Made by a program: the position numbers and the translations under genes. 64,000 nucleotides of DNA from Escherichia phage RB43. Every line of letters starts with the position of its first letter. The stretch's first letter is position 1. Below are positions 3,361 to 29,870 of this stretch, one piece after another. The stretch lies in the sequence record NC_007023.1. One strand, 5' to 3'. A model generated the notes under the pieces. That model had not been told where the DNA came from. It ran no database searches and saw only the letters and a list, made by a program, of their open reading frames with translations.

Positions 3361-4004
3361 TTAATTAAACTTATTGTACAGCATGAAGTTTACACCGATT
3401 GAACTTAGGGAGGTACAAGCTCGTTCCAGGTCGTCCGCTTCAATTTCGATAACGAATTTCGTTCGTATTAAAGCTGGCGCGACTTCTTCGACAGAAGGTG
3501 TAGTGACTTCTACGACAGGTTTATATACGTTCTTATCATGATCAGGAACATCATCGAGATACTTCAACATTTGATTGATGTATCGTTTATCTGAGTATAC
3601 AAACCGCTTCGCATTCGTCAGAAGAGAACGCATTTTAGAGCGGGTTGTAACTTTTGTACTTTCTTTGTATCCGCTACTTTCGGTGTTAAGAAAGTTTGGA
3701 TTGCTATCCAGCATAATGATAGACGCTAGATTGTTTTTGTGGAAGTATCCCACGAGTTCATTACGAGACTGAGAGAAACAAGCACATAAGCCTCTTCACC
3801 TACCAGATACATTTGTATATGTACTGGCGCTGTAAACATTTTGTTTATGATTTTATGGAATCGAGTGTTTTCCGATAAACTGCGTTGTCTTGTATAACTT
3901 TTGAAAATGTTATCTTTGACAATGGTCGCCATCGTTTCGATGTGGTTTAGCGATTTCCCAAGTAACGGGTTCAGAAAAACTTCTTTTTTCGGTACATAAG
4001 CCAT
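3361..4004 (-). CDS. hypothetical protein, apparently split by a frameshift (ORFs 3361-3753 and 3726-4004 overlap near an A5 run)
   Basis: Two overlapping same-strand ORFs, both frames open across the junction ~3740-3800. Confidence 0.3.
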
Positions 4005-4020
4005 ATTTCAAATTCTCTTT

Positions 4021-4311
4021 TTAGTGCATGAAAGATTTAACGTACTTCAATATTTCTTCACGACATGTGTCAACGCTTGTGTTTTCGGCAATCATAGCAT
4101 GACAAAGTATCTCACCGTCAAGCCAAAACGTCAGCATGTATTGAATATCACGACCTTCTGTTGCTTCCTGATGATACTTGATTTTCGCGAAAGCAGTTTC
4201 GATACTTTCGGTTACTGTCAACATTTCGGAATCACCATCTACAGCAGCCATTTCCCCAGCTTCTTCGCTGAATTCGCTTTCCAGTTCTTCCCAGTATACT
4301 ATCGTTATCAT
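4021..4311 (-). CDS. hypothetical acidic protein (96 aa)
   Basis: minus ORF preferred over mirror plus ORF 4024-4314 (Phe/Cys-rich, atypical). Confidence 0.4.
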   Translation of the reverse strand: MITIVYWEELESEFSEEAGEMAAVDGDSEMLTVTESIETAFAKIKYHQEATEGRDIQYMLTFWLDGEILCHAMIAENTSVDTCREEILKYVKSFMH

Positions 4312-4444
4312 TGATTACCCCAAACATACTTTACATTTGCATAAAGGGCATTCAGCCTCTTTGATGCGTAGACGTTTCGTTGTTGTCTTCTTCTCCGTAT
4401 TGTGATCATATACATGAAGACAACGGAAGCAGATCACCCAACGT

Positions 4445-4912
4445 TTATCCGTCATAACCGCCACCGCACTTAACCTCACCTTCAATGAACAGTTCGCGGT
4501 TGTCTCTCAAAAGATTGTATTTCTTTTCGAGTTCCGGCCCGAATGCGTCAGCGTCTTCATAATAGCTATAATTATAACAACCGCATTCATCATCCCATTC
4601 AGGTTCATCACCGCGTTCGTTGAAGTGTACGACTTTGAGATCGTCAACTCCAGACTCTTTCATTTTATCCCAGATATACCGGATGTCAACGCTATGGTAA
4701 CTGAATGCTTCAAGGGTGATGTTATCACCATCGATTTGAGGGATACCCCATTTAGGACGTTGGTCATCGGTGATGATATCAAGCAAAGATTCTACGTTTT
4801 CGTGTCCGTAAATCTTCGCGACCTCTTCCTCTTTACCAGGACGAACAAGCCCGATCCCGATAATAAAGCTACTGCTTGAACTGTTACTTACAAAACCAGA
4901 ACGGATCTTCAT
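4445..4912 (-). CDS. hypothetical protein with conserved N-terminal leader MKIRSGFVSNSSSSSF (paralog A)
   Basis: 155 aa; N-terminal 16 aa identical to gene 8362-8844 with synonymous nucleotide differences; acidic W/Y/C-rich C-terminus. Confidence 0.6.
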   Translation of the reverse strand: MKIRSGFVSNSSSSSFIIGIGLVRPGKEEEVAKIYGHENVESLLDIITDDQRPKWGIPQIDGDNITLEAFSYHSVDIRYIWDKMKESGVDDLKVVHFNERGDEPEWDDECGCYNYSYYEDADAFGPELEKKYNLLRDNRELFIEGEVKCGGGYDG

Positions 4913-5100
4913 CGTCTTGCCTCATATTTCGCGTTCTCCGCGATTTTTTCTTGATAGATGTTATATGACATTACCAGAGGCGCAATCGCCACGATAAGCC
5001 CTATAAAGCACACAGAGAACTCACGTTTATTGAAAGCCAGGAACGCAATTGCGCTCCCGACTACAAACACACCTAATGCCAGTAAGAAGAATAGCGTCAT
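4909..5100 (-). CDS. small membrane protein (2 predicted TM helices)
   Basis: 63 aa hydrophobic; ATGA overlap with downstream gene. Confidence 0.5.
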   Translation of the reverse strand: MTLFFLLALGVFVVGSAIAFLAFNKREFSVCFIGLIVAIAPLVMSYNIYQEKIAENAKYEARR

Positions 5101-5714
5101 TTCGGCAACGTGTCCATTTTGCGTGATTTTTCCAACAGGGTGTTGATTACCGTATCCATCGCCTGTTCTGTATCACCATCATGATAGATGATCGCGGTTT
5201 GATGCAAACCTTTCACCAGACGATTAATAATGTACGCCATTTCGGTCGGTAACAGTTTACCCGTTTCGTTGAATTTTTCAAACAGTTTGAACAGTTCTTC
5301 ATTATTCCCTTTCTTACTGAAATTGAAATCGTGCATACCAGACAGAAGACCATCCAGATACAGAACTGTTTTGTTATCAGAGCGGAGGTGTCCACCGATT
5401 TTGTAGTAGTTGCTGAAAACGTATGGCGCTTCACGAACATCATTGATTTCGAAACCAGCATCATCGATATTGCCTACGTGGGAGAAGAAATCCGCATCGT
5501 TATCGAACAGGTTGATCGCGCCTTTCTTGTACGGGAAGCCAGCCAGGTTAATGACTCCCTTTTCATACGCATCATCGTTATCAACGACAACGTATTCAGG
5601 AAGCATAGGGGCATACGGTTTGTTTTTGTCGTGGTTTTCGCGATACGCTAAAGGTTCAGCCAGATAGAGGATATCGCCTTGTTTGACTTCATCCCAAAAG
5701 ATATTACGTGACAT
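5097..5714 (-). CDS. hypothetical protein (~205 aa)
   Basis: Start moved to internal ATG 5712-5714 (RBS GAGGAA) because ORF-track N-terminus overlaps the vWA gene stop. Confidence 0.5.
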   Translation of the reverse strand: MSRNIFWDEVKQGDILYLAEPLAYRENHDKNKPYAPMLPEYVVVDNDDAYEKGVINLAGFPYKKGAINLFDNDADFFSHVGNIDDAGFEINDVREAPYVFSNYYKIGGHLRSDNKTVLYLDGLLSGMHDFNFSKKGNNEELFKLFEKFNETGKLLPTEMAYIINRLVKGLHQTAIIYHDGDTEQAMDTVINTLLEKSRKMDTLPK

Positions 5715-5754
5715 ATTAAATTCCTCAATATGCCCCCTTTCGGGGGCTATTTCA

Positions 5755-7974
5755 TTACAGTTTAACTTCTTTTTCTTCCAGAACGATTTCGCAATCGAAT
5801 GTTGCACCTTCCCAGAATTTATGCGGGATAATGTCAGTCGCTTTAACCGATACTTTGGTTTCTTCAAAATCCAGATCCGCAAACCAGGCGTGGCCTACAA
5901 CGATACCATACATTACACGGCTCAGGCGCTTGTTCAGTGCGCGTACTTCGTTGATGGTTGCCTTTGTTTCTTTATCAAGGTACTCGATTACCTTATCCTT
6001 GTCAAGCGCTGCGAGTTCAGCTTTAACAGAATCGTAAGCCCACAGGATGATCAGGTCGCCGTTGTTCAGTTTCTTCTTACCTTCGGCACGTTTCGCAACG
6101 GTTGCCGCTACAGCAGGAAGGGAGGAAACACCCTTGATTTTCAGATTCAGTTCTTTCGACATATAAACATCAGTCGAATCGGTACTGGTTACTTTCGGGG
6201 AGAATCCATAATCACGAATACCCTGTTCAGATAACCATTCACCAGCGGCTTCACCGTATTTCTGTTTCAGACCTTCGGCATTACGTAAACCGATCGCGTC
6301 GTCACGGAAGAACTTCATCACCTTCTGGCGACCTTTCAGGATTTCCAGACGGATAGAGTCGTTTACATACTCTTTACCGGAGATCCCGCGAGTCATCGCA
6401 CGGTTAACCAGGGGCAGACTGGTAAAGTCAACCAGTACCGACATGCGGTCTTCACCGATTTTTGCCAGCGGCTTGATAGTCAAACCAGAAGCGCGAAGGT
6501 TTTTCAGTGTCGGAATATCAGTTTCCAGCGGCAGAACCTTAACGTTTACGATACCGTCTTTAACGATGGTAAAGTTACGTACCTGCTTAGTTTCGATCTG
6601 TTCAGGCAGTTTCAGTTCTTTCTGTTTGCTTTCTGGGATAGTTACGTAACCCATCAGATCCGTGTTAATGGAAATGTTAGGACGTGAACTGTTACCGACC
6701 AGGTGCTTAACCGATACTTTGGTTGTAGTCTGGGTAAATTTCGGTGTCCAGATTTCATGCGTTACCATTTGCGCCGCAAGTGCTTTGCGTTCTTCCGGTG
6801 TTTTCGCGTTTGCAATCTGTTCAGACAGTTGATCCAGAGTATCATCTTCTTTCTGTACCGTCTGACGGCCTGTGCGGTTGTACGCCCAGTGTTCAGAGGA
6901 CAGGTCGATCACAGTGTCGGTTTCTGCCAGCAGTTCGAGAGCGTCAACCAGAGTGAACGCGTTTTCGTCTGGAACCATGTTGTAATCAACACCATCGAGC
7001 AGACGTTTAGCCGGATCAACTACCGCTTCCGCGATCAGGTCTTTCGCGTTGGAATAGTCCTGTTTGGTAAAGCAGTTATCATACGCCTTAATCAGACGAA
7101 CATCACCCAGCTTTTTCAGCACTTTCCATGCAAGGTCAGGGTTCATTGTGTGTAGCGCATGATACAGCACGACATACAGAACCTGTTCACCTTCCAGAGT
7201 AGCCGGATCGAAACCGTCGATGTCGTTGATTGCGTTATCACCCAGCGCCCAGATGTTTTTGATGTGCTCAGGAACCAGAACAACACCGTTTGCAGCGTTC
7301 AGGACATACACACGCCCTTCGTCCAGGTAGATAGCATGGGTTGCGTCAGCAACTTTAACTTCGACGCGAGCGGAGGTTTGCGCGGTGATGATTTCAGCAA
7401 ATGCTGGCTCGTATGCGTCGAAACCTTCAACGAATTTATGCAATGCGTTGGTTGCTTCTGCCATTTTTTCCAGCAGAGGACGGTTAACATAATAGCCGTA
7501 TTCCAGGAATGCAATGCTGTTAAACGTCAGCGGGAGAACCGCACACGCTTTCAGGATGTCATCGGTACGCCAGCAGTTATCATAACCATCAGTCAGGAAG
7601 ATCAGGCTGTTCAGGTTGCCGTTTTCGGATTGCAGGTCGGTTGCGATTTCAGCAGCCAGATTCAGTGGTTCAACAAAACCAGTACAACCAGTAGGTTTCA
7701 GATAACGGTCGATCGCGGTACAGATATTGGTCAGATCCGATACGTTGCTAACCTTCTCACCACGGAACACAGTACCGTAATCGCCTTTGCTGGAGAAGTA
7801 CAGGATCGAAACGGTGTCATCCTGTTTAACCAGACTCGCCAGGTTTGCTTTCAGGTGCTTACGGATCTTCGGCAGTTCGTTATACATTGAACCGGAAACG
7901 TCGCAAACGAAAACGTGGTTGGTCGGAGTCGGCTTAGATACTGCGTTTTTGAATTCGATATTTGTAATTGACAT
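5755..7974 (-). CDS. von Willebrand factor A (vWA) domain protein, 739 aa
   Basis: N-terminal MIDAS motif VFVCDVSGSM (DxSxS) and downstream IFLTDGYDN; long C-terminal region of unknown function. Confidence 0.8.
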   Translation of the reverse strand: MSITNIEFKNAVSKPTPTNHVFVCDVSGSMYNELPKIRKHLKANLASLVKQDDTVSILYFSSKGDYGTVFRGEKVSNVSDLTNICTAIDRYLKPTGCTGFVEPLNLAAEIATDLQSENGNLNSLIFLTDGYDNCWRTDDILKACAVLPLTFNSIAFLEYGYYVNRPLLEKMAEATNALHKFVEGFDAYEPAFAEIITAQTSARVEVKVADATHAIYLDEGRVYVLNAANGVVLVPEHIKNIWALGDNAINDIDGFDPATLEGEQVLYVVLYHALHTMNPDLAWKVLKKLGDVRLIKAYDNCFTKQDYSNAKDLIAEAVVDPAKRLLDGVDYNMVPDENAFTLVDALELLAETDTVIDLSSEHWAYNRTGRQTVQKEDDTLDQLSEQIANAKTPEERKALAAQMVTHEIWTPKFTQTTTKVSVKHLVGNSSRPNISINTDLMGYVTIPESKQKELKLPEQIETKQVRNFTIVKDGIVNVKVLPLETDIPTLKNLRASGLTIKPLAKIGEDRMSVLVDFTSLPLVNRAMTRGISGKEYVNDSIRLEILKGRQKVMKFFRDDAIGLRNAEGLKQKYGEAAGEWLSEQGIRDYGFSPKVTSTDSTDVYMSKELNLKIKGVSSLPAVAATVAKRAEGKKKLNNGDLIILWAYDSVKAELAALDKDKVIEYLDKETKATINEVRALNKRLSRVMYGIVVGHAWFADLDFEETKVSVKATDIIPHKFWEGATFDCEIVLEEKEVKL

Positions 7975-7984
7975 TTAGTTTTTC

Positions 7985-8221
7985 TCAGTATTTGGATTTG
8001 GTTGTTTTGTGTACATTTAAAATGCTTTGGATTTTTTCGGAAATCGTTTGCTGGTCTGGTTCACATCCCAACTTACCGCCAATCGCCTTGTAAAAATCTT
8101 CAACAGAGCTTACGTTGAAATCCGGCATATGGAAACCTAACGAGTACATATGCGGATTGTGGAATTCGTAAACATCCACATTGTATTCGTTAAGATCGAA
8201 ACGTTCAAGATATTTCTTCAA
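7985..8221 (-). CDS. hypothetical protein (78 aa)
   Basis: ORF in operon context. Confidence 0.45.
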   Translation of the reverse strand: MKKYLERFDLNEYNVDVYEFHNPHMYSLGFHMPDFNVSSVEDFYKAIGGKLGCEPDQQTISEKIQSILNVHKTTKSKY

Positions 8222-8361
8222 AGAAAATAAATCGAACGGTAATGGGAGGTGCTGTTCAATCGTTACAGGTTCCCCCAGCTTGTGCGCTTTCAGGGGTTGC
8301 CCCTTTCGCGTATGTCAGTTCTGTTTTCATCAGTGGTGACTCTTTTGATGTATATTCAAGG

Positions 8362-8844
8362 TTACGGAAAGATGTTTCCATGTTCCAGTTGGGTTCCAAT
8401 CGGGCCGCACTCGTCAGAGTACGTAAACTCGTAGATAAACACGCCGTTTTGATTCCCGTACTTCGTGTTGTATTCTTCATACAGCCACATCTTGATCAGA
8501 GCGTCTTTCTCTTCGGTTTCTAAATCGTACCAATCCCGACCATCATATGCAAGCGCAATTTGCGGATTTGAACGATAACGGGTTTCGGCGCTGTCTTCGG
8601 TTTCCCAATCATAACGCTTATCATCATAATACGATTCAAAGCTATTACCCATGTGACCGCCTAAGTCACGGTGAACGTGTTGAACAACTTCTTCGGATGT
8701 CAGCGGAGGATTATAATAACCGCAATTGGGAGAACAATCACCCATCATTTCGCGAAGGTTGTCGATATCAATCGGATCTTTCGGGAACCGGACGATAAAA
8801 CTACTTGATGAACTATTGCTCACAAAACCAGAACGAATTTTCAT
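8362..8844 (-). CDS. hypothetical protein with conserved N-terminal leader MKIRSGFVSNSSSSSF (paralog B)
   Basis: 160 aa; shares 16-aa N-terminus with 4445-4912. Confidence 0.6.
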   Translation of the reverse strand: MKIRSGFVSNSSSSSFIVRFPKDPIDIDNLREMMGDCSPNCGYYNPPLTSEEVVQHVHRDLGGHMGNSFESYYDDKRYDWETEDSAETRYRSNPQIALAYDGRDWYDLETEEKDALIKMWLYEEYNTKYGNQNGVFIYEFTYSDECGPIGTQLEHGNIFP

Positions 8845-9086
8845 TTTAACGCCTCGAATTTGATTTCTTTCAGTGATTGTGTGTGATTATAACAAACCAC
8901 TCCGCGATGTGTTTTCTTTCCGGTAAATCCGTCGAATATGGTGACATAATAATGATAGCAACAATCATCAAGAGGATTGTTTCTGATATAGTCTAACACA
9001 ACGTCCAACGATACGGTAGAGCATACGCAATCAGATTCATTGTCACGACCATCATAGAAATCTTTTTCAATACTATAAATTTTCAC
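8841..9086 (-). CDS. hypothetical Cys-rich protein (81 aa, GTG start)
   Basis: ORF; ATGA-type overlap with downstream gene. Confidence 0.4.
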   Translation of the reverse strand: MKIYSIEKDFYDGRDNESDCVCSTVSLDVVLDYIRNNPLDDCCYHYYVTIFDGFTGKKTHRGVVCYNHTQSLKEIKFEALK

Positions 9087-9352
9087 GATACTTGCCTCAT
9101 GTTAGACATAATTTCTTCAAAAGTCACGGGGAATTCTTTGGGTTCGCAATCGTCATCCCATTCTTCTCGATATCCGTTAATTTTGCTAACCGCGATCATC
9201 TTATCGTTTTTCCCATACAGTCACTTCAATACGATCACCAAGATAGGGAAAGCTGGGGTGCTTGTTGATTACATCAACACACGTTTGAAGAGATTCAGAT
9301 ACTTGAATTACTTCACCAAAATCATAATCGCCGTGACGCGACAGAACATAAA

Positions 9353-9887: not shown

Positions 9888-10358
9888 TCAGTTTCGTTTC
9901 GATAAAGTTAAGGTATCACTGTTCTTACGAAGATGCAAACACTTTTTTGAAGAATTTGTTTCCGGTCTTTCTTTGTATGGGCGCATGGTCAACCGCTTAC
10001 CGTCCAATACTGTTGGTTTTCCATCCAGTTCAATCAGGATAAAGTTGCCTTTGCGATACTTCAACACGCCCTGGCTTGCCGACCATTCATCGTTATCCCA
10101 GTGGTTGTAATGCCATTCAACAACGGTATCGATTGGTATTTCTGGTTGATTTCTCATATTTGCTTTCCTTCGTTCTGATGCTTCTTTCAATTGTCGTATT
10201 TGTGGTATCAACTGTTGTGGTGGAACAGTATCTTCCCGTTTCAATGCCTTTCGAACTTGATCAACAAACCATTCGTATTTCGGACGGCGGTTAAGTTCTT
10301 CCCTTAGTCGGGCATTCTCTTGTTCGGCAATGCTTGCGCGTTTTCTGTAATCGGTCAT
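9888..10358 (-). CDS. hypothetical protein (156 aa), translationally coupled to methyltransferase
   Basis: 4-nt overlap with dcm-like gene. Confidence 0.45.
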   Translation of the reverse strand: MTDYRKRASIAEQENARLREELNRRPKYEWFVDQVRKALKREDTVPPQQLIPQIRQLKEASERRKANMRNQPEIPIDTVVEWHYNHWDNDEWSASQGVLKYRKGNFILIELDGKPTVLDGKRLTMRPYKERPETNSSKKCLHLRKNSDTLTLSKRN

Positions 10359-11263
10359 AGAACTTTCCTTATCTGTTTGGCTATTGCCTCGATAACTGGC
10401 ACGGAAACGGAGTTACCCGCTTGCTTGTATGCTTGTTTTTTACTCGATGGAATAATAAACGAATCTGGGAAGCCCTGCAAGCGAAAACATTCACGCGGGG
10501 TTAATCGTCGTGGGTTCTTCCCATCCTGTAACACCAGACACTGAACGCCGTCCTTGTAGTATTGCGCTGTGATGGTTCCTGTGTGCGTAGAATCGGCTGT
10601 GACGGCCTGATAACCAAACCCCTTACCGTTTGCCTTATTTCGTTCCTTACGCTCTCTAAAGCCTTTCCACGCGTTATCTGATAGGGTGTACGAATCATCA
10701 ACATCTTCGAGGATATCACCTACGCGCGTAGGGGTGCGCGGGGGAACCGGAAACGAAAAGAATACATCATCCAGGAAGCAGACAATAAACACACGTTCAC
10801 GTCGCTGGGGTAATCCGAAATCTTTCGTATTCAGTCGTTGATAGAATACGTTGTATCCTTCGGCCTCCAGAAGCCCGTAAATCGTTTTAAACGTCTTTCC
10901 CTTGTCATGGGTTAGCAATTCAGGCACATTCTCAAAGAACAGCACACGGGGCTTTTTAGCGCGTATAATGCGGAGGATTTCAAAGAACACCGTACCGCGA
11001 ACATCATCGAAGCCCAGTTTTAATCCGGCTTTACTGAATGCCTGACACGGGAACCCAGCCAACAGGATATCGTGATCAGGTACTTTGTTTTCATCAATGG
11101 CGAACAAGTCACCTTCGAGATTATCACCGCCCCAGTTAGCGGCGTATGTTTGCTGTGCGAATTTGTCGATCTCAGCAGTAAGCACACATTCAACACCGTC
11201 AAATGCGCGATCAAAGCCCATACGAACGCCACCAACGCCAGCGCATAAATCAATCAGTTTCAT
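10355..11263 (-). CDS. DNA (cytosine-5)-methyltransferase, Dcm-like
   Basis: C5-MTase motifs: LCAGVGG (I), GFPCQAFS (IV), ENV (VI), QRRERVFIV (VIII), QGFPDSF. Confidence 0.9.
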   Translation of the reverse strand: MKLIDLCAGVGGVRMGFDRAFDGVECVLTAEIDKFAQQTYAANWGGDNLEGDLFAIDENKVPDHDILLAGFPCQAFSKAGLKLGFDDVRGTVFFEILRIIRAKKPRVLFFENVPELLTHDKGKTFKTIYGLLEAEGYNVFYQRLNTKDFGLPQRRERVFIVCFLDDVFFSFPVPPRTPTRVGDILEDVDDSYTLSDNAWKGFRERKERNKANGKGFGYQAVTADSTHTGTITAQYYKDGVQCLVLQDGKNPRRLTPRECFRLQGFPDSFIIPSSKKQAYKQAGNSVSVPVIEAIAKQIRKVL

Positions 11264-28432: not shown

Positions 28433-28715
28433 ATTTGAGAGTATTCATATAACCGATGATGTATTCAACAACAGCATCGCGTTCTTCTTCACATTCATAT
28501 CCACCCCACGTTACCGACTGATTATGTGCTAAATGAAACGTAATCGCAGGTTTCCATGTTTTGTTAATACAAGGAATTTTAGCGTCGGTCTGAATCCATA
28601 AAACGTGCTCTACGTTAACAGGATAGTTAACACATTCCACCTCTGCGTTACTATTGTATACAAAATGGTCTGCGTATAAACGTTTATACGATTTAATTTC
28701 TGACACAATAATCAT
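28422..28715 (-). CDS. hypothetical protein (97 aa)
   Basis: ORF; ATGA overlap with upstream gene's reconstructed stop. Confidence 0.45.
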   Translation of the reverse strand: MIIVSEIKSYKRLYADHFVYNSNAEVECVNYPVNVEHVLWIQTDAKIPCINKTWKPAITFHLAHNQSVTWGGYECEEERDAVVEYIIGYMNTLKYGG

Positions 28716-29870
28716 TTTAACTCCACTGCATAAACATCGGTTTCAGGGGCTTTGTGTACGCGCATATCTTTACCACATACCGCATAAGCCGGACAGTTGC
28801 GACAACCGTTATGATCCGTGTTGCCTGTCAGTTCTTTACGGAACTGTTTTGTTCGCGGGTGTTCCCAGATATCTTTGATAAAAATCATCTGCTTCCAGAA
28901 CGTTCAAACCTTCGCCCCAGCCACCTTCAACCCAACGTTCGGTAAACGAGCAAGGGAAGAATTCGCCTTTTTCGTTGATGTAAGAGCTAAACATCGTCGC
29001 TTCGCAATCTTCCGCATACTGCTTGTATTGTTCGAAGTTCGGGTGTCCCTCCATCGCTTCAACGAAAGCGGGTGCTGAACAACTATCGAATCCAAATCCT
29101 ACACCAGAATCGAGGCAATATTCAACAAGTTTTTTGTATTGTTCGCGGGTGACGGTATCCCAGTTCTTACCGCGTCCCTTTTGTTTCAGACCCAGGAACA
29201 CGATCGCATTGACTTGTTTCAGGCGTGGATCGTTACGCACGGCATCAACAACGGTAAACGCATCATCATAGGTCTTTGAGCTAACCATGAAATGTAGGTT
29301 GATTTGCTGTTGTCCTGCTTCTGCCAGGTTCGCTACGGAATCGAAAGCAACATCGAAGCCAGCATGTTTATACACCGATACCGCAACAGCCCCAGCAACC
29401 GCCGCTAAACGCGCTGCAACGTCTTTTGATACATCAGCAATGGTAAGGTTCGGCACAATGCCTTTAGAACGCGCATAGGCCATCATATCAAACATATCAG
29501 GGTTTGTTTGTCCCTGTGCATCAGCACCGAGTGCGCATTGGGTTAACCAGGGCATTTTATCAATGATGGATTTGAAAGAAGCGAGATCCATATTGTAGCC
29601 GTTCGGGTTATTGGACTTGTAACAGAACCCACACAGCTTACCAGCAGGACCGTTGCATTTGGTAGTGACCTCAATATCGAGAATCTCAGGGAATGGGGCA
29701 TAAGTCGGATCGTTGTCAAAGGTTGTACCCCAACGAGCAAACTGACCAGTTTTAACGTTGAAATCGTAATTGTACCATTTGGATCTAGCGTGGCGCATAT
29801 CTCCAGCCTGGTAGATAAACAACGTAGGCGCTTTCATAACAGTATGTGCATTATTCATAATATTTCTCAA
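28712..29870 (-). CDS. putative Fe-S / radical-SAM-like enzyme (non-canonical CX7CX2C), apparent frameshift at A5 run ~28885-28895
   Basis: TTKCNGPAGKLCGFCY cluster; C-terminal continuation in another frame adds CRNCPAYAVCGKD Cys motif. Confidence 0.35.

Follow-up and report, generated by a model that had tools for sequence, protein, structure and literature searches.

Why do two unrelated proteins of one phage begin with the same peptide? The question is raised by genes A and B of Escherichia phage RB43, which lie on the minus strand of the stretch of 64,000 nucleotides analyzed here (record NC_007023.1; the window). By its open reading frame and translation, gene A (4445..4912) encodes a protein of 155 aa that is identical to GenBank AAX78638.1 and is "hypothetical" in all naming sources. 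Gene B (8362..8844; RB43ORF121c), defined in the same way, is read in the window as a protein of 160 aa and matches phrog_7397 at 1e-110. Compared with isolate RB43-GVA, where the protein has 170 aa, gene B is shortened in the window by 1-nt insertions; in the RB43-GVA reading the intact gene would extend to about position 8330. The first-pass annotation reported an identical leader of 16 residues on the two genes. The leader is indeed present on both, but its length is really 17 residues: codons 1-17 of A (4862..4912, minus strand) and of B (8794..8844, minus strand) specify the same peptide, MKIRSGFVSNSSSSSFI, hereafter the tag, and BLASTP aligns the two N-termini with 17/18 identities. A profile of the tag, run against the six-frame translation of the window, scores 43.2 bits on A and 43.0 bits on B, and at most 6.3 bits elsewhere. 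In both genes GAGG is found 7 nt upstream of the ATG.

Past the N-terminus, BLASTP finds nothing else significant between A and B. With the tag removed, the A and B families are aligned by hhalign with a probability of 0.1%, and the AlphaFold topologies of the two proteins are unlike, which bears out the earlier view that the remainders are unrelated. At the DNA level, 10 of the 51 bases of the tag differ between A and B. The differences, spread over 8 codons, are synonymous throughout and include one exchange between AGC and TCA, which belong to different Ser codon families. Because of these 10 synonymous differences, a recent duplication and a misassembled repeat, which the first-pass annotation had named as an alternative, are both excluded, and its proposal that selection acts on the peptide is upheld.

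In the A family, pairwise identity is 99% over residues 1-17 and 39% over the remainder, and the C-terminal end reads G-x-G-(Y/R)-(D/N)-G. The B family conserves the tag and a C-terminal YSDE.G...LEHGNIFRN..H..SHH. Homologue searches found no tag-less relative of either protein. The AlphaFold model of A has a pLDDT of 89.5, with beta-strand 1 at residues 13-23; in A as well as in B, residues 1-10 have a pLDDT below 50, and the tag passes directly, without a linker, into beta-strand 1. Sequence searches of Pfam, NCBIfam, PADLOC and PDB with A or B gave no curated family or solved structure, and those of PHROGs gave only phrog_7397, of unknown function, and a weak match of A (residues 64-147, 3e-10) to phrog_132, which is labelled head-tail adaptor.

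The first-pass annotation had allowed that the leader might be found in these two genes only. The tag in fact stands at the start of about 16,000 protein clusters, almost all of them viral, whose C-terminal parts are of more than 100 unrelated kinds, and it is covered by no Pfam or NCBIfam model. Its consensus is MKIRxGFVSNSSSSSF. Among 258 tag proteins from loci fetched with the enzyme described below, every one has S11 and S12, 257 have N10 and 256 have R4, and 10 have S, C or N in place of G6. The 617 distinct DNA copies of the tag use all six Ser, all six Arg and all four Gly codons, and the constraint therefore acts on the peptide. The tag is nearly invariant among elements from very different hosts. 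Some bacterial copies adjoin defence genes, including a protease-STAND NTPase and Avs-like STAND NTPases.

The cargo is as varied as the tag is constant, and the earlier description of a common tag on divergent cargo applies well outside RB43. The tagged proteins are typically 80-210 aa long (up to about 300; median 129 aa), and their folded domains are of diverse types, some of them Zn-ribbon-like. Stripped of the tag, they fall into 127 BLAST clusters, and when the 11 largest families are compared by hhalign, most pairings stay below a probability of 5%. One pair, families 5 and 6, merges at 98%; the other matches are short and local (23-32%), namely those of B to two families around an S-D-E-x-G motif and of A to one family at its G-x-G-R-x-G end. 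The idea of a single divergent superfamily with the tag as its active-site strand gains no support from these comparisons of tag-stripped families. Several motifs were also weighed by eye and dropped for wrong spacing or missing key residues: HAD, PP-loop and flavodoxin P-loop, the RHG of histidine phosphatases, the SNS of Ntn-hydrolases, the GDSL block and the glycyl-radical loop.

What accompanies the tag is an enzyme. The 207 tag loci contain some 2,000 ORFs other than tag genes, among which the sole recurrent family is a Radical_SAM+SPASM protein of about 346 aa, present in 93 of the loci. The distance from the enzyme to the nearest tag gene has a median of 1.1 kb, and the two are on the same strand in 95/96 cases. 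The association holds in reverse. When loci were fetched by enzyme homology alone (n=78; 35-94% identity), 66 had tag genes within 8 kb, between 1 and 11 of them and always on the strand of the enzyme, and most of these genes begin immediately after the enzyme stop codon. The other 12 loci include seven from RB43-like phages, in which the tag genes are about 20 kb away. In RB43 itself the enzyme gene is 20 kb from A and B, and adjacency thus fails in this window. Among cultured phages, 172 records contain the enzyme and 175 contain the A-B region, and the two sets are composed alike by genus. The single outlier, Vibrio phage D479, has three tag genes upstream of the enzyme, on the same strand. 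The co-occurrence thus runs both ways, in phages very distant from each other as well as in some bacteria. No third conserved gene was found beside the enzyme in its loci; a vWA protein encoded between A and B was considered for this role and rejected, being limited to RB43-like loci and one distant copy.

The tag also varies with the enzyme. The Ser9-to-Thr variant is uniform within genomes (0.986 against a null of 0.865), a value reached in 0/1000 shuffles; positions 13-16 show no within-genome uniformity in the same comparison. The Thr9 variant follows one enzyme clade, in that for 18/21 Thr9 loci all six nearest enzymes come from Thr9 loci.

The gene proposed as the partner of the tag in RB43 lies at 28712..29858 on the minus strand and was identified as a radical SAM/SPASM-type enzyme by tblastn, BLASTP, the Pfam SPASM model and conserved cysteines. 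It encodes 381 aa in RB43-GVA; in the window the frame is shifted by one additional base at 28880, and the open ORF is 28836-29870 (344 aa). The gene is matched by tblastn at 3e-22 with a query enzyme that adjoins tags elsewhere. On its own the protein falls below the Pfam Radical_SAM model, and SPASM is the only model matched (1.2e-5, above cut-off). It is related by BLASTP at 1e-29 to a protein in which Pfam confirms both domains, and the family as a whole matches Radical_SAM at 1e-12 and SPASM at 9e-7. The three-Cys radical SAM motif and the auxiliary-cluster cysteines are present as the invariant Cys68/76/79 and Cys260/285/303/355. The cluster motif of the RB43 enzyme is unusual, being Cx7Cx2C rather than Cx3Cx2C, and in its C-terminal CX2CX5CX3C motif the fourth Cys is missing. 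The enzyme also has a conserved N-terminal extension of about 50 residues. The nearest solved structures are SPASM/twitch enzymes acting on peptides or small molecules: SuiB (9e-8), SkfB (2e-7), BtrN and PqqE. No NCBIfam maturase model reaches its cut-off, as judged from the best 25 of 38 matches.

We consider it probable, with a likelihood of roughly 0.6 on the sequence evidence, that the tag is the recognition site and, most likely, the modification site of this phage SPASM/twitch enzyme. The tag is read as the site of an enzyme and not as a capsid-sorting signal because the unrelated proteins that carry it are mostly encoded alongside one radical SAM enzyme. From the conservation of the tag, the family of the enzyme and the two-way linkage, we infer that the tagged proteins are its substrates. 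One enzyme gene would then serve a single small protein in some carriers and eleven or more in others, and these proteins are alike only in their N-terminal peptide; in RB43 the substrates would be A and B, and the enzyme the product of the 28712-29858 gene. The flexible first ten or so residues would enter the active site, where cleavage of SAM would give a 5'-deoxyadenosyl radical that would abstract hydrogen from a residue of the tag. Candidate targets are the invariant N10-S11-S12 and the F7-V8-S9 triplet, and the reaction could yield either an oxidised serine or a cross-link such as a Phe-to-Ser cyclophane. That residues 1-10 are left unplaced in the models of A and B is what would be expected of a peptide free to enter the enzyme. 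Residues 13-17 are predicted to lie inside beta-strand 1, so that a modification there would have to precede folding. The linkage and co-variation could alternatively reflect shared descent or a partnership in which the tagged proteins are not substrates.

A wider reading is more tentative, and we would put it at slightly less than even odds: that phages and some bacterial defence loci possess a previously undescribed system in which one enzyme installs a new cross-link or oxidised serine on the tag of unrelated effectors (about 16,000 clusters), for use in phage-host conflict. In the same, equally tentative reading, the products of ribosomal synthesis and post-translational modification would be proteins and not peptides.

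The lead example of the first-pass annotation was different: a signal directing the proteins to the prohead as internal proteins, or else into some other compartment or export route, possibly with cleavage. One leader on many cargoes in tandem arrays does recall the internal-protein loci of T4, and the phrog_132 match of A, as well as a minimal prohead-protease site in B (L30-R31-E32), can be cited in its favor. We nevertheless regard it as very improbable. The capsid-targeting sequence of T4 consists of about 10 N-terminal residues of the MKTYQEFIAE type, and MKIRSGFVSNSSSSSFI resembles it in Met-Lys only, a dissimilarity that had been rightly pointed out. As for the usual prohead-protease site, for which the leader had been noted to contain no Glu, (L/I)-x-E is absent from residues 1-40 of A, and B has the site just mentioned with a Glu that its family does not conserve. 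Nor does a linker separate the tag from the fold. The late-promoter sequence TATAAATA occurs at three sites in the window, which is the level of chance, and the nearest one (18292) is more than 9 kb from A and B, both of which are among tightly packed, leftward-oriented small genes; the distance argues weakly against late expression, as read-through transcription is possible. Fold searches gave no match to a virion protein. Inspection of the tag by eye for a Sec, Tat or lipoprotein signal reveals neither a hydrophobic core (10 or more residues) nor a motif such as AxA, a lipobox Cys or a twin Arg, only GFV followed by a polar Ser run, with no Cys and no RR. The tag also occurs in bacterial loci adjoining defence genes, and its near-invariance in very diverse elements is unexpected for a lineage-specific packaging signal. 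The capsid-targeting example is thus not sustained, and the vaguer phrase that went with it, "another export/processing tag", comes close to the evidence, given the co-occurrence with a radical SAM/SPASM enzyme.

Two further explanations accept the enzyme as a partner or neighbor and deny the chemistry on the tag. The tag could be a docking peptide that tethers the small proteins to the enzyme, their variable domains being adaptors or regulators that bring host proteins, nucleic acids or metabolites to it or switch it on and off. The two-way linkage and co-variation fit this equally well, the cargoes are diverse folded domains, and the conserved N-terminal extension of the enzyme speaks for it too. 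However, the SPASM/twitch enzymes of known function act, to our knowledge, on a peptide or small molecule that they bind, and we know of no precedent for up to 11 alternative adaptors of one enzyme. The invariant Ser and Asn, moreover, suggest chemistry above simple binding, and we think docking quite unlikely. Alternatively, the tag may be a self-contained module, such as an oligomerization beta-strand or an element that binds a universal host component, to which the enzyme is linked only as a co-regulated member of a cassette. Its merging with beta-strand 1 without a linker and its near-invariance across elements of very different hosts would be natural for such a module, and the conserved extreme C-termini of the A and B families might pack near the N-terminus. 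It would leave unexplained, however, why an enzyme of the peptide-maturase type is the sole conserved neighbor in both directions, in phages and bacteria, and why the tag variant follows the enzyme clade; we therefore hold it to be unlikely. Recognition and modification by the enzyme is the reading that we prefer.

A full-text search of the literature, with the tag sequence itself included, found no description of the tag or of the tag-enzyme system, nor a virion proteome of an RB43-like phage that maps onto A or B. If the enzyme modifies the tag, a large class of radical SAM substrates has gone unnoticed, consisting of folded proteins and not short peptides, and a single phage genome may hold 11 or more of them. 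For radical SAM enzymology there would be a new reaction to define, and for phage biology a handle on about 16,000 clusters of "hypothetical" proteins without a Pfam family. A part in the conflict between phage and host is suggested by those bacterial copies that adjoin Avs-like STAND NTPases. RB43 is a tractable case: E. coli and Klebsiella are hosts for the phage and its relatives, and there are one enzyme gene and, under this reading, two substrates. Protein engineering could also make use of an enzyme that writes a short tag on arbitrary cargo.

Several known systems resemble the proposed one in part. In RiPP biosynthesis too (SuiB, SkfB), one gene of the SPASM/twitch type lies beside genes that have one conserved peptide and are otherwise hypervariable, and multi-precursor RiPP families with a common recognition sequence, such as the prochlorosins, are well known. 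The tagged products, unlike RiPP precursors, are predicted to be folded proteins and not short peptides; their conserved 16-17 residues are at the very N-terminus and continue into the fold; the carriers are mostly phages; and the RRE domain, leader peptidase and exporter of a canonical cluster are not conserved beside the tag enzyme. T4 internal proteins are likewise small, diverse phage proteins with an identical N-terminal peptide, but they share with the tagged proteins no sequence similarity, conserved protease site or nearby late promoter, and it is the tag that is linked to a radical SAM enzyme. The glycyl-radical fingerprint R-V-x-G-(Y/F/W), which also has a radical SAM partner, is superficially like R4-x-G6-F7. 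The spacing in the tag is off by one residue, however, G6 is replaceable, and the tag is N-terminal whereas the fingerprint lies near the C-terminus; the glycyl-radical activases are, as far as we know, not SPASM/twitch enzymes. In triceptide (three-residue cyclophane) systems such as FxsB/FxSxx, the substrate has an aromatic-x-x motif, a pattern that F7-V8-S9 fits, and position 9 co-varies with the enzyme clade; the enzyme has no specific match to the maturase models of those systems among the best 25 of 38.

A further parallel is offered by the anaerobic sulfatase-maturating enzymes (anSME/AtsB), radical SAM/SPASM enzymes that act on a short Ser/Cys motif of a full-size sulfatase before or during folding. 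The tag does not contain the sulfatase motif (C/S)-x-(P/A)-x-R, it is carried by many unrelated small proteins and not by one enzyme family, and anSME is outside the best matches; what the two have in common is a short Ser-containing motif on a full-size protein together with a radical SAM/SPASM enzyme. The FxSxx-COOH peptides offer a likeness in genomic setting and in having a conserved F-x-S at one terminus. As set out in the part of Kaur et al. (2020; PMC7159879) that deals with them, a fast-diverging small protein is encoded with a radical SAM-SPASM gene in vWA-MoxR conflict systems with STAND-type NTPases, and the FxSxx motif is C-terminal and released by a zincin-like peptidase. The motif of the tag is N-terminal instead, with no peptidase linked, and the FxsB model is absent among the best 25 of 38 NCBIfam matches. 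The tag nevertheless contains F7-V8-S9, and some of its bacterial copies, like the FxSxx genes, are found beside a STAND NTPase, here of the protease-STAND type.

Genes A (4445-4912, minus strand; an ORF of 155 aa) and B (8362-8844, minus strand; an ORF of 160 aa, RB43ORF121c of the original RB43 record) encode small proteins that begin with the same peptide, MKIRSGFVSNSSSSSFI. The first-pass annotation had described an identical leader of 16 residues; BLASTP confirms it in both genes, gives its length as 17, and finds no further similarity between A and B beyond this tag. The remainders of the two proteins (the cargoes) are indeed unalike: profile comparison of the tag-stripped families A and B shows no relationship (hhalign probability 0.1%), and their predicted topologies differ. 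The 51 bases encoding the tag differ between A and B at 10 positions in 8 codons, and every difference is synonymous, one of them a switch of serine codon family (AGC/TCA), which excludes a recent duplication as well as a misassembled repeat. Selection acts on the peptide, as had been proposed, since all six serine codons occur at every serine position of the tag among 617 distinct DNA copies. GAGG sits 7 nt 5' of the ATG in both genes. With a profile built from the tag, the A and B ORFs score 43 bits, and nothing else in the window exceeds 6.3 bits.

The leader is not confined to these two genes; tag-led proteins are widespread and mostly viral. In IMG/VR, at least 119 stretches match a degenerate DNA pattern of the tag, many with 2-6 tag genes in tandem, and in prokaryotes (one genome per species, 185,579 species) only 93 stretches do so, the majority in metagenome bins. 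Pattern-found loci and database homologues together yield 428 distinct tagged proteins. Without the tag these give 127 BLAST clusters, 94 singletons, and the 11 largest families show almost no mutual relationship in profile comparison. In the first viral set, the median length is 130 aa and 201/211 members carry the tag at a constant distance from Met1. Scores of the tag profile are sharply bimodal, with about 470 matches above 24 bits and none at 10-24 bits. When 1.84 billion cluster representatives were searched exhaustively with an HMM, 15,910 proteins reached E ≤0.001, and the best 150 of these are all B-like. Neither the tag nor its cargoes belong to any family in Pfam, NCBIfam, or PADLOC, and full-text searches of open-access papers returned nothing relevant on the tag sequence, although subscription journals may differ.

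RB43-type phages probably carry just two tagged genes, A and B, as a 178-kb RB43-like genome inside a bacterial assembly has exactly two tag-pattern matches in the full listing. This record (NZ_JBHSCL010000010.1, 178,077 bp, from the marine Bacteroidota Flagellimonas marina) encodes a B orthologue and, at 90% identity, the von Willebrand A (vWA) protein of RB43; it is RB43-type in size and appears to be the genome of an enterobacterial phage that contaminated the assembly and was filed as bacterial. Source names for tagged proteins are "hypothetical" throughout, except that UniRef labels this B orthologue "YubB ferredoxin-like domain-containing protein"; B has no Pfam match here. The same UniRef 90% cluster holds a 333-aa Cronobacter phage protein labeled "putative thioredoxin," probably a fusion or a mis-call.

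In family A, pairwise identity is 99% in residues 1-17 and averages 39% from residue 25 onward; in family B it is 92% in the tag and 29% in the remainder. Beyond the tag, conservation extends in family A to a C-terminal G-x-G-(Y/R)-(D/N)-G and in family B to YSDE.G...LEHGNIFRN..H..SHH, which follows a helical insert of variable length. Homologue searches found no relative of A or B that lacks the tag. AlphaFold predicts a beta-rich alpha/beta domain for A (pLDDT 89.5) and a mainly helical protein with three strands for the B family (pLDDT 83, modeled on a member 92% identical to the RB43 gene B protein). Searches of Pfam, NCBIfam, PADLOC, PDB sequences, and Foldseek gave no explanatory match for either.

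When all non-tag ORFs of the tag loci were clustered to seek a recurrent neighbor, one family stood out. It is a protein of about 346 aa with Pfam Radical_SAM (1e-12) and SPASM (9e-7) domains, present in 92 tag loci, or in 93/207 by a more sensitive search, and in 50/97 of the tag loci 6-9 kb long. The median distance from this enzyme to the nearest tag gene is 1.1 kb, and the two share a strand in 95/96 cases. The linkage is reciprocal. Among 78 viral loci fetched by enzyme homology alone, independently of the tag (35-94% identity), 66 hold 1-11 tag genes within 8 kb, all on the enzyme strand and most starting directly after the enzyme stop codon; RB43-like phages make up 7 of the 12 loci that have none within 8 kb. 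No third conserved gene was found around the enzyme in these loci. Of 50,697 cultured-phage records, 172 contain the enzyme and 175 the A-B region, and the two sets have the same make-up by genus. The sole distant enzyme match among them is Vibrio phage D479 (258 kb), in which three tag genes lie upstream of the enzyme on the same strand. Between A and B lies a gene (5755-7974, minus strand) for a 739-aa protein (phrog_2426), the vWA protein, whose N-terminal domain has the MIDAS motif DVSGS. It was rejected as a general partner, being confined to RB43-like loci and one 26%-identical copy, which sits near other tag genes.

The RB43 enzyme gene (28712-29858, minus strand) was located by tblastn (28839-29786, 3e-22). 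It encodes 381 aa in the RB43-GVA reading; an extra base at 28880 cuts the window ORF to 344 aa. The protein passes the Pfam SPASM cut-off (1.2e-5), aligns along its entire length with a bona fide Radical_SAM and SPASM protein from Acetatifactor muris (BLASTP 1e-29), and has all family-conserved cysteines, three of the radical SAM cluster and four more. Its cluster spacing is Cx7Cx2C (enzyme residues 68-79; window 29625-29660 region) instead of the canonical Cx3Cx2C; the first two cluster cysteines are 3-8 residues apart in the family alignment, depending on the member. Sub-types have either the full SPASM motif, CX2CX5CX3C, or a reduced one with a single terminal cysteine. The best solved relatives of the enzyme profile are SuiB (9e-8), SkfB (2e-7), BtrN, and PqqE. 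NCBIfam gives sub-threshold matches only, to many peptide maturases, and public names are generic ("radical SAM protein," "SPASM domain-containing protein"). In D479, a homing endonuclease gene (10133-10861 of the fetched locus) directly follows the enzyme gene on the opposite strand. In one viral locus, an unrelated start segment (…HNCYKSNGH) replaces the cluster loop of the enzyme, which suggests insertion of a mobile element into this gene family.

The window is 99.9% identical to RB43-GVA (HE981739) across 4000-9200. Single-base indels distinguish the two at 3776, 8293, 8343, 8368, 9207, 9879, 9955, 12190, 12205, 14569, 14644, and 28880, which shorten gene B (160 vs 170 aa) as well as the radical SAM gene and break a 114-aa gene downstream of B. 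As family alignments favor the GVA reading, the indels seem to be either errors made in sequencing the older RB43 record or genuine pseudogenizing mutations.

Invariance of the tag in the first scan was partly imposed by the DNA pattern used; unbiased conservation comes from the A and B pairwise identities, a within-genome uniformity test, and 258 tag proteins from the enzyme-fetched loci. In the latter, S11 and S12 are invariant (258/258), followed by N10 (257), R4 (256), S9 (253), K2 (252), F16 (251), F7 (249), and G6 (248); V8 occurs in 244, the remainder having Ile, and position 5 is free. Positions 8 and 13-16 vary freely among paralogues of one genome, and Ser9-to-Thr alone among the substitutions is uniform within genomes (0.986 vs a null of 0.865). 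Thr9 loci have one enzyme clade in common, a pattern consistent with a requirement, specific to the enzyme, at position 9 or close to it, though shared descent could also produce it.

We put at about 60% the probability that the tagged proteins are substrates of the radical SAM enzyme. The flexible N-terminus of the tag would enter the active site, where the 5'-deoxyadenosyl radical would abstract a hydrogen within F7-V8-S9-N10-S11-S12, yielding a cross-link or an oxidized serine. Such a modification might provide stabilization, activation, a reactive group, or even a localization handle. A tag that serves for docking only would also fit the same-strand linkage and the Thr9 pattern, but seems improbable. 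In the AlphaFold models of both A and the B family, confidence is low at residues 1-10 (pLDDT below 50), and from S13 onward the tag makes up the beginning of beta-strand 1, so its opening portion is probably flexible and, in the models, no linker separates tag and fold. The tag could then be an intrinsic structural or binding element, the linkage to the enzyme being indirect; with that linkage recovered from either side, we regard this as unlikely.

The first-pass annotation read the leader as a sorting signal, for example for capsid targeting, which now appears very unlikely. The capsid example lacks support: to our knowledge the tag bears no resemblance to the T4 targeting sequence, no (L/I)-x-E site occurs in A, and L30-R31-E32 of B is not conserved across its family. 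The late-promoter consensus TATAAATA occurs at only three sites in the window, as expected by chance, the nearest more than 9 kb off, and A and B lie among small overlapping genes packed densely into a leftward block, an arrangement typical of pre-replicative regions in T4-like phages. Inspection of the tag reveals no Sec-, Tat-, or lipoprotein-type signal. The C-terminal half of A (residues 64-147) does match phrog_132 ("head-tail adaptor," 3e-10), but no other tagged family does so and fold searches lend no support to a virion-protein fold for A. Packaging of A or B into virions is unsupported rather than disproved.

In 12 bacterial loci (L121, L128, L137, L139, L149, L154, L162, L168, L176, L177, L184, and L210), from Acetatifactor, Veillonella, Lachnobacterium, Sulfuricurvum, Verrucomicrobia, and others, the pair of enzyme and tagged protein adjoins a trypsin-like-protease-STAND NTPase (PADLOC Avs2, 9e-16); in Acetatifactor muris the stretch concerned is 1061-7997 of L121. 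Four of the 12 also have an MBL-fold protein (Avs1a 5e-52, LmuA 3e-62), and bacterial loci sometimes add two further proteins, a conserved one of 142 aa and one of 332 aa bearing an "integron cassette protein" domain. The cluster of enzyme, tag, and STAND genes may be an undescribed defense cassette.

The nearest published analogue of the tag and enzyme pair is the FxSxx systems of Kaur et al. (PMC7159879). In those conflict systems, a radical SAM-SPASM enzyme is paired with small, rapidly evolving proteins whose C-terminus is a conserved FxSxx peptide. The present system differs from these in the terminus used, the peptidase, and the enzyme clade. That one radical SAM maturase serves several tagged substrates is a known logic; new here are full-size folded proteins that carry an invariant peptide at their very N-terminus, in a very large family found mainly in phages.
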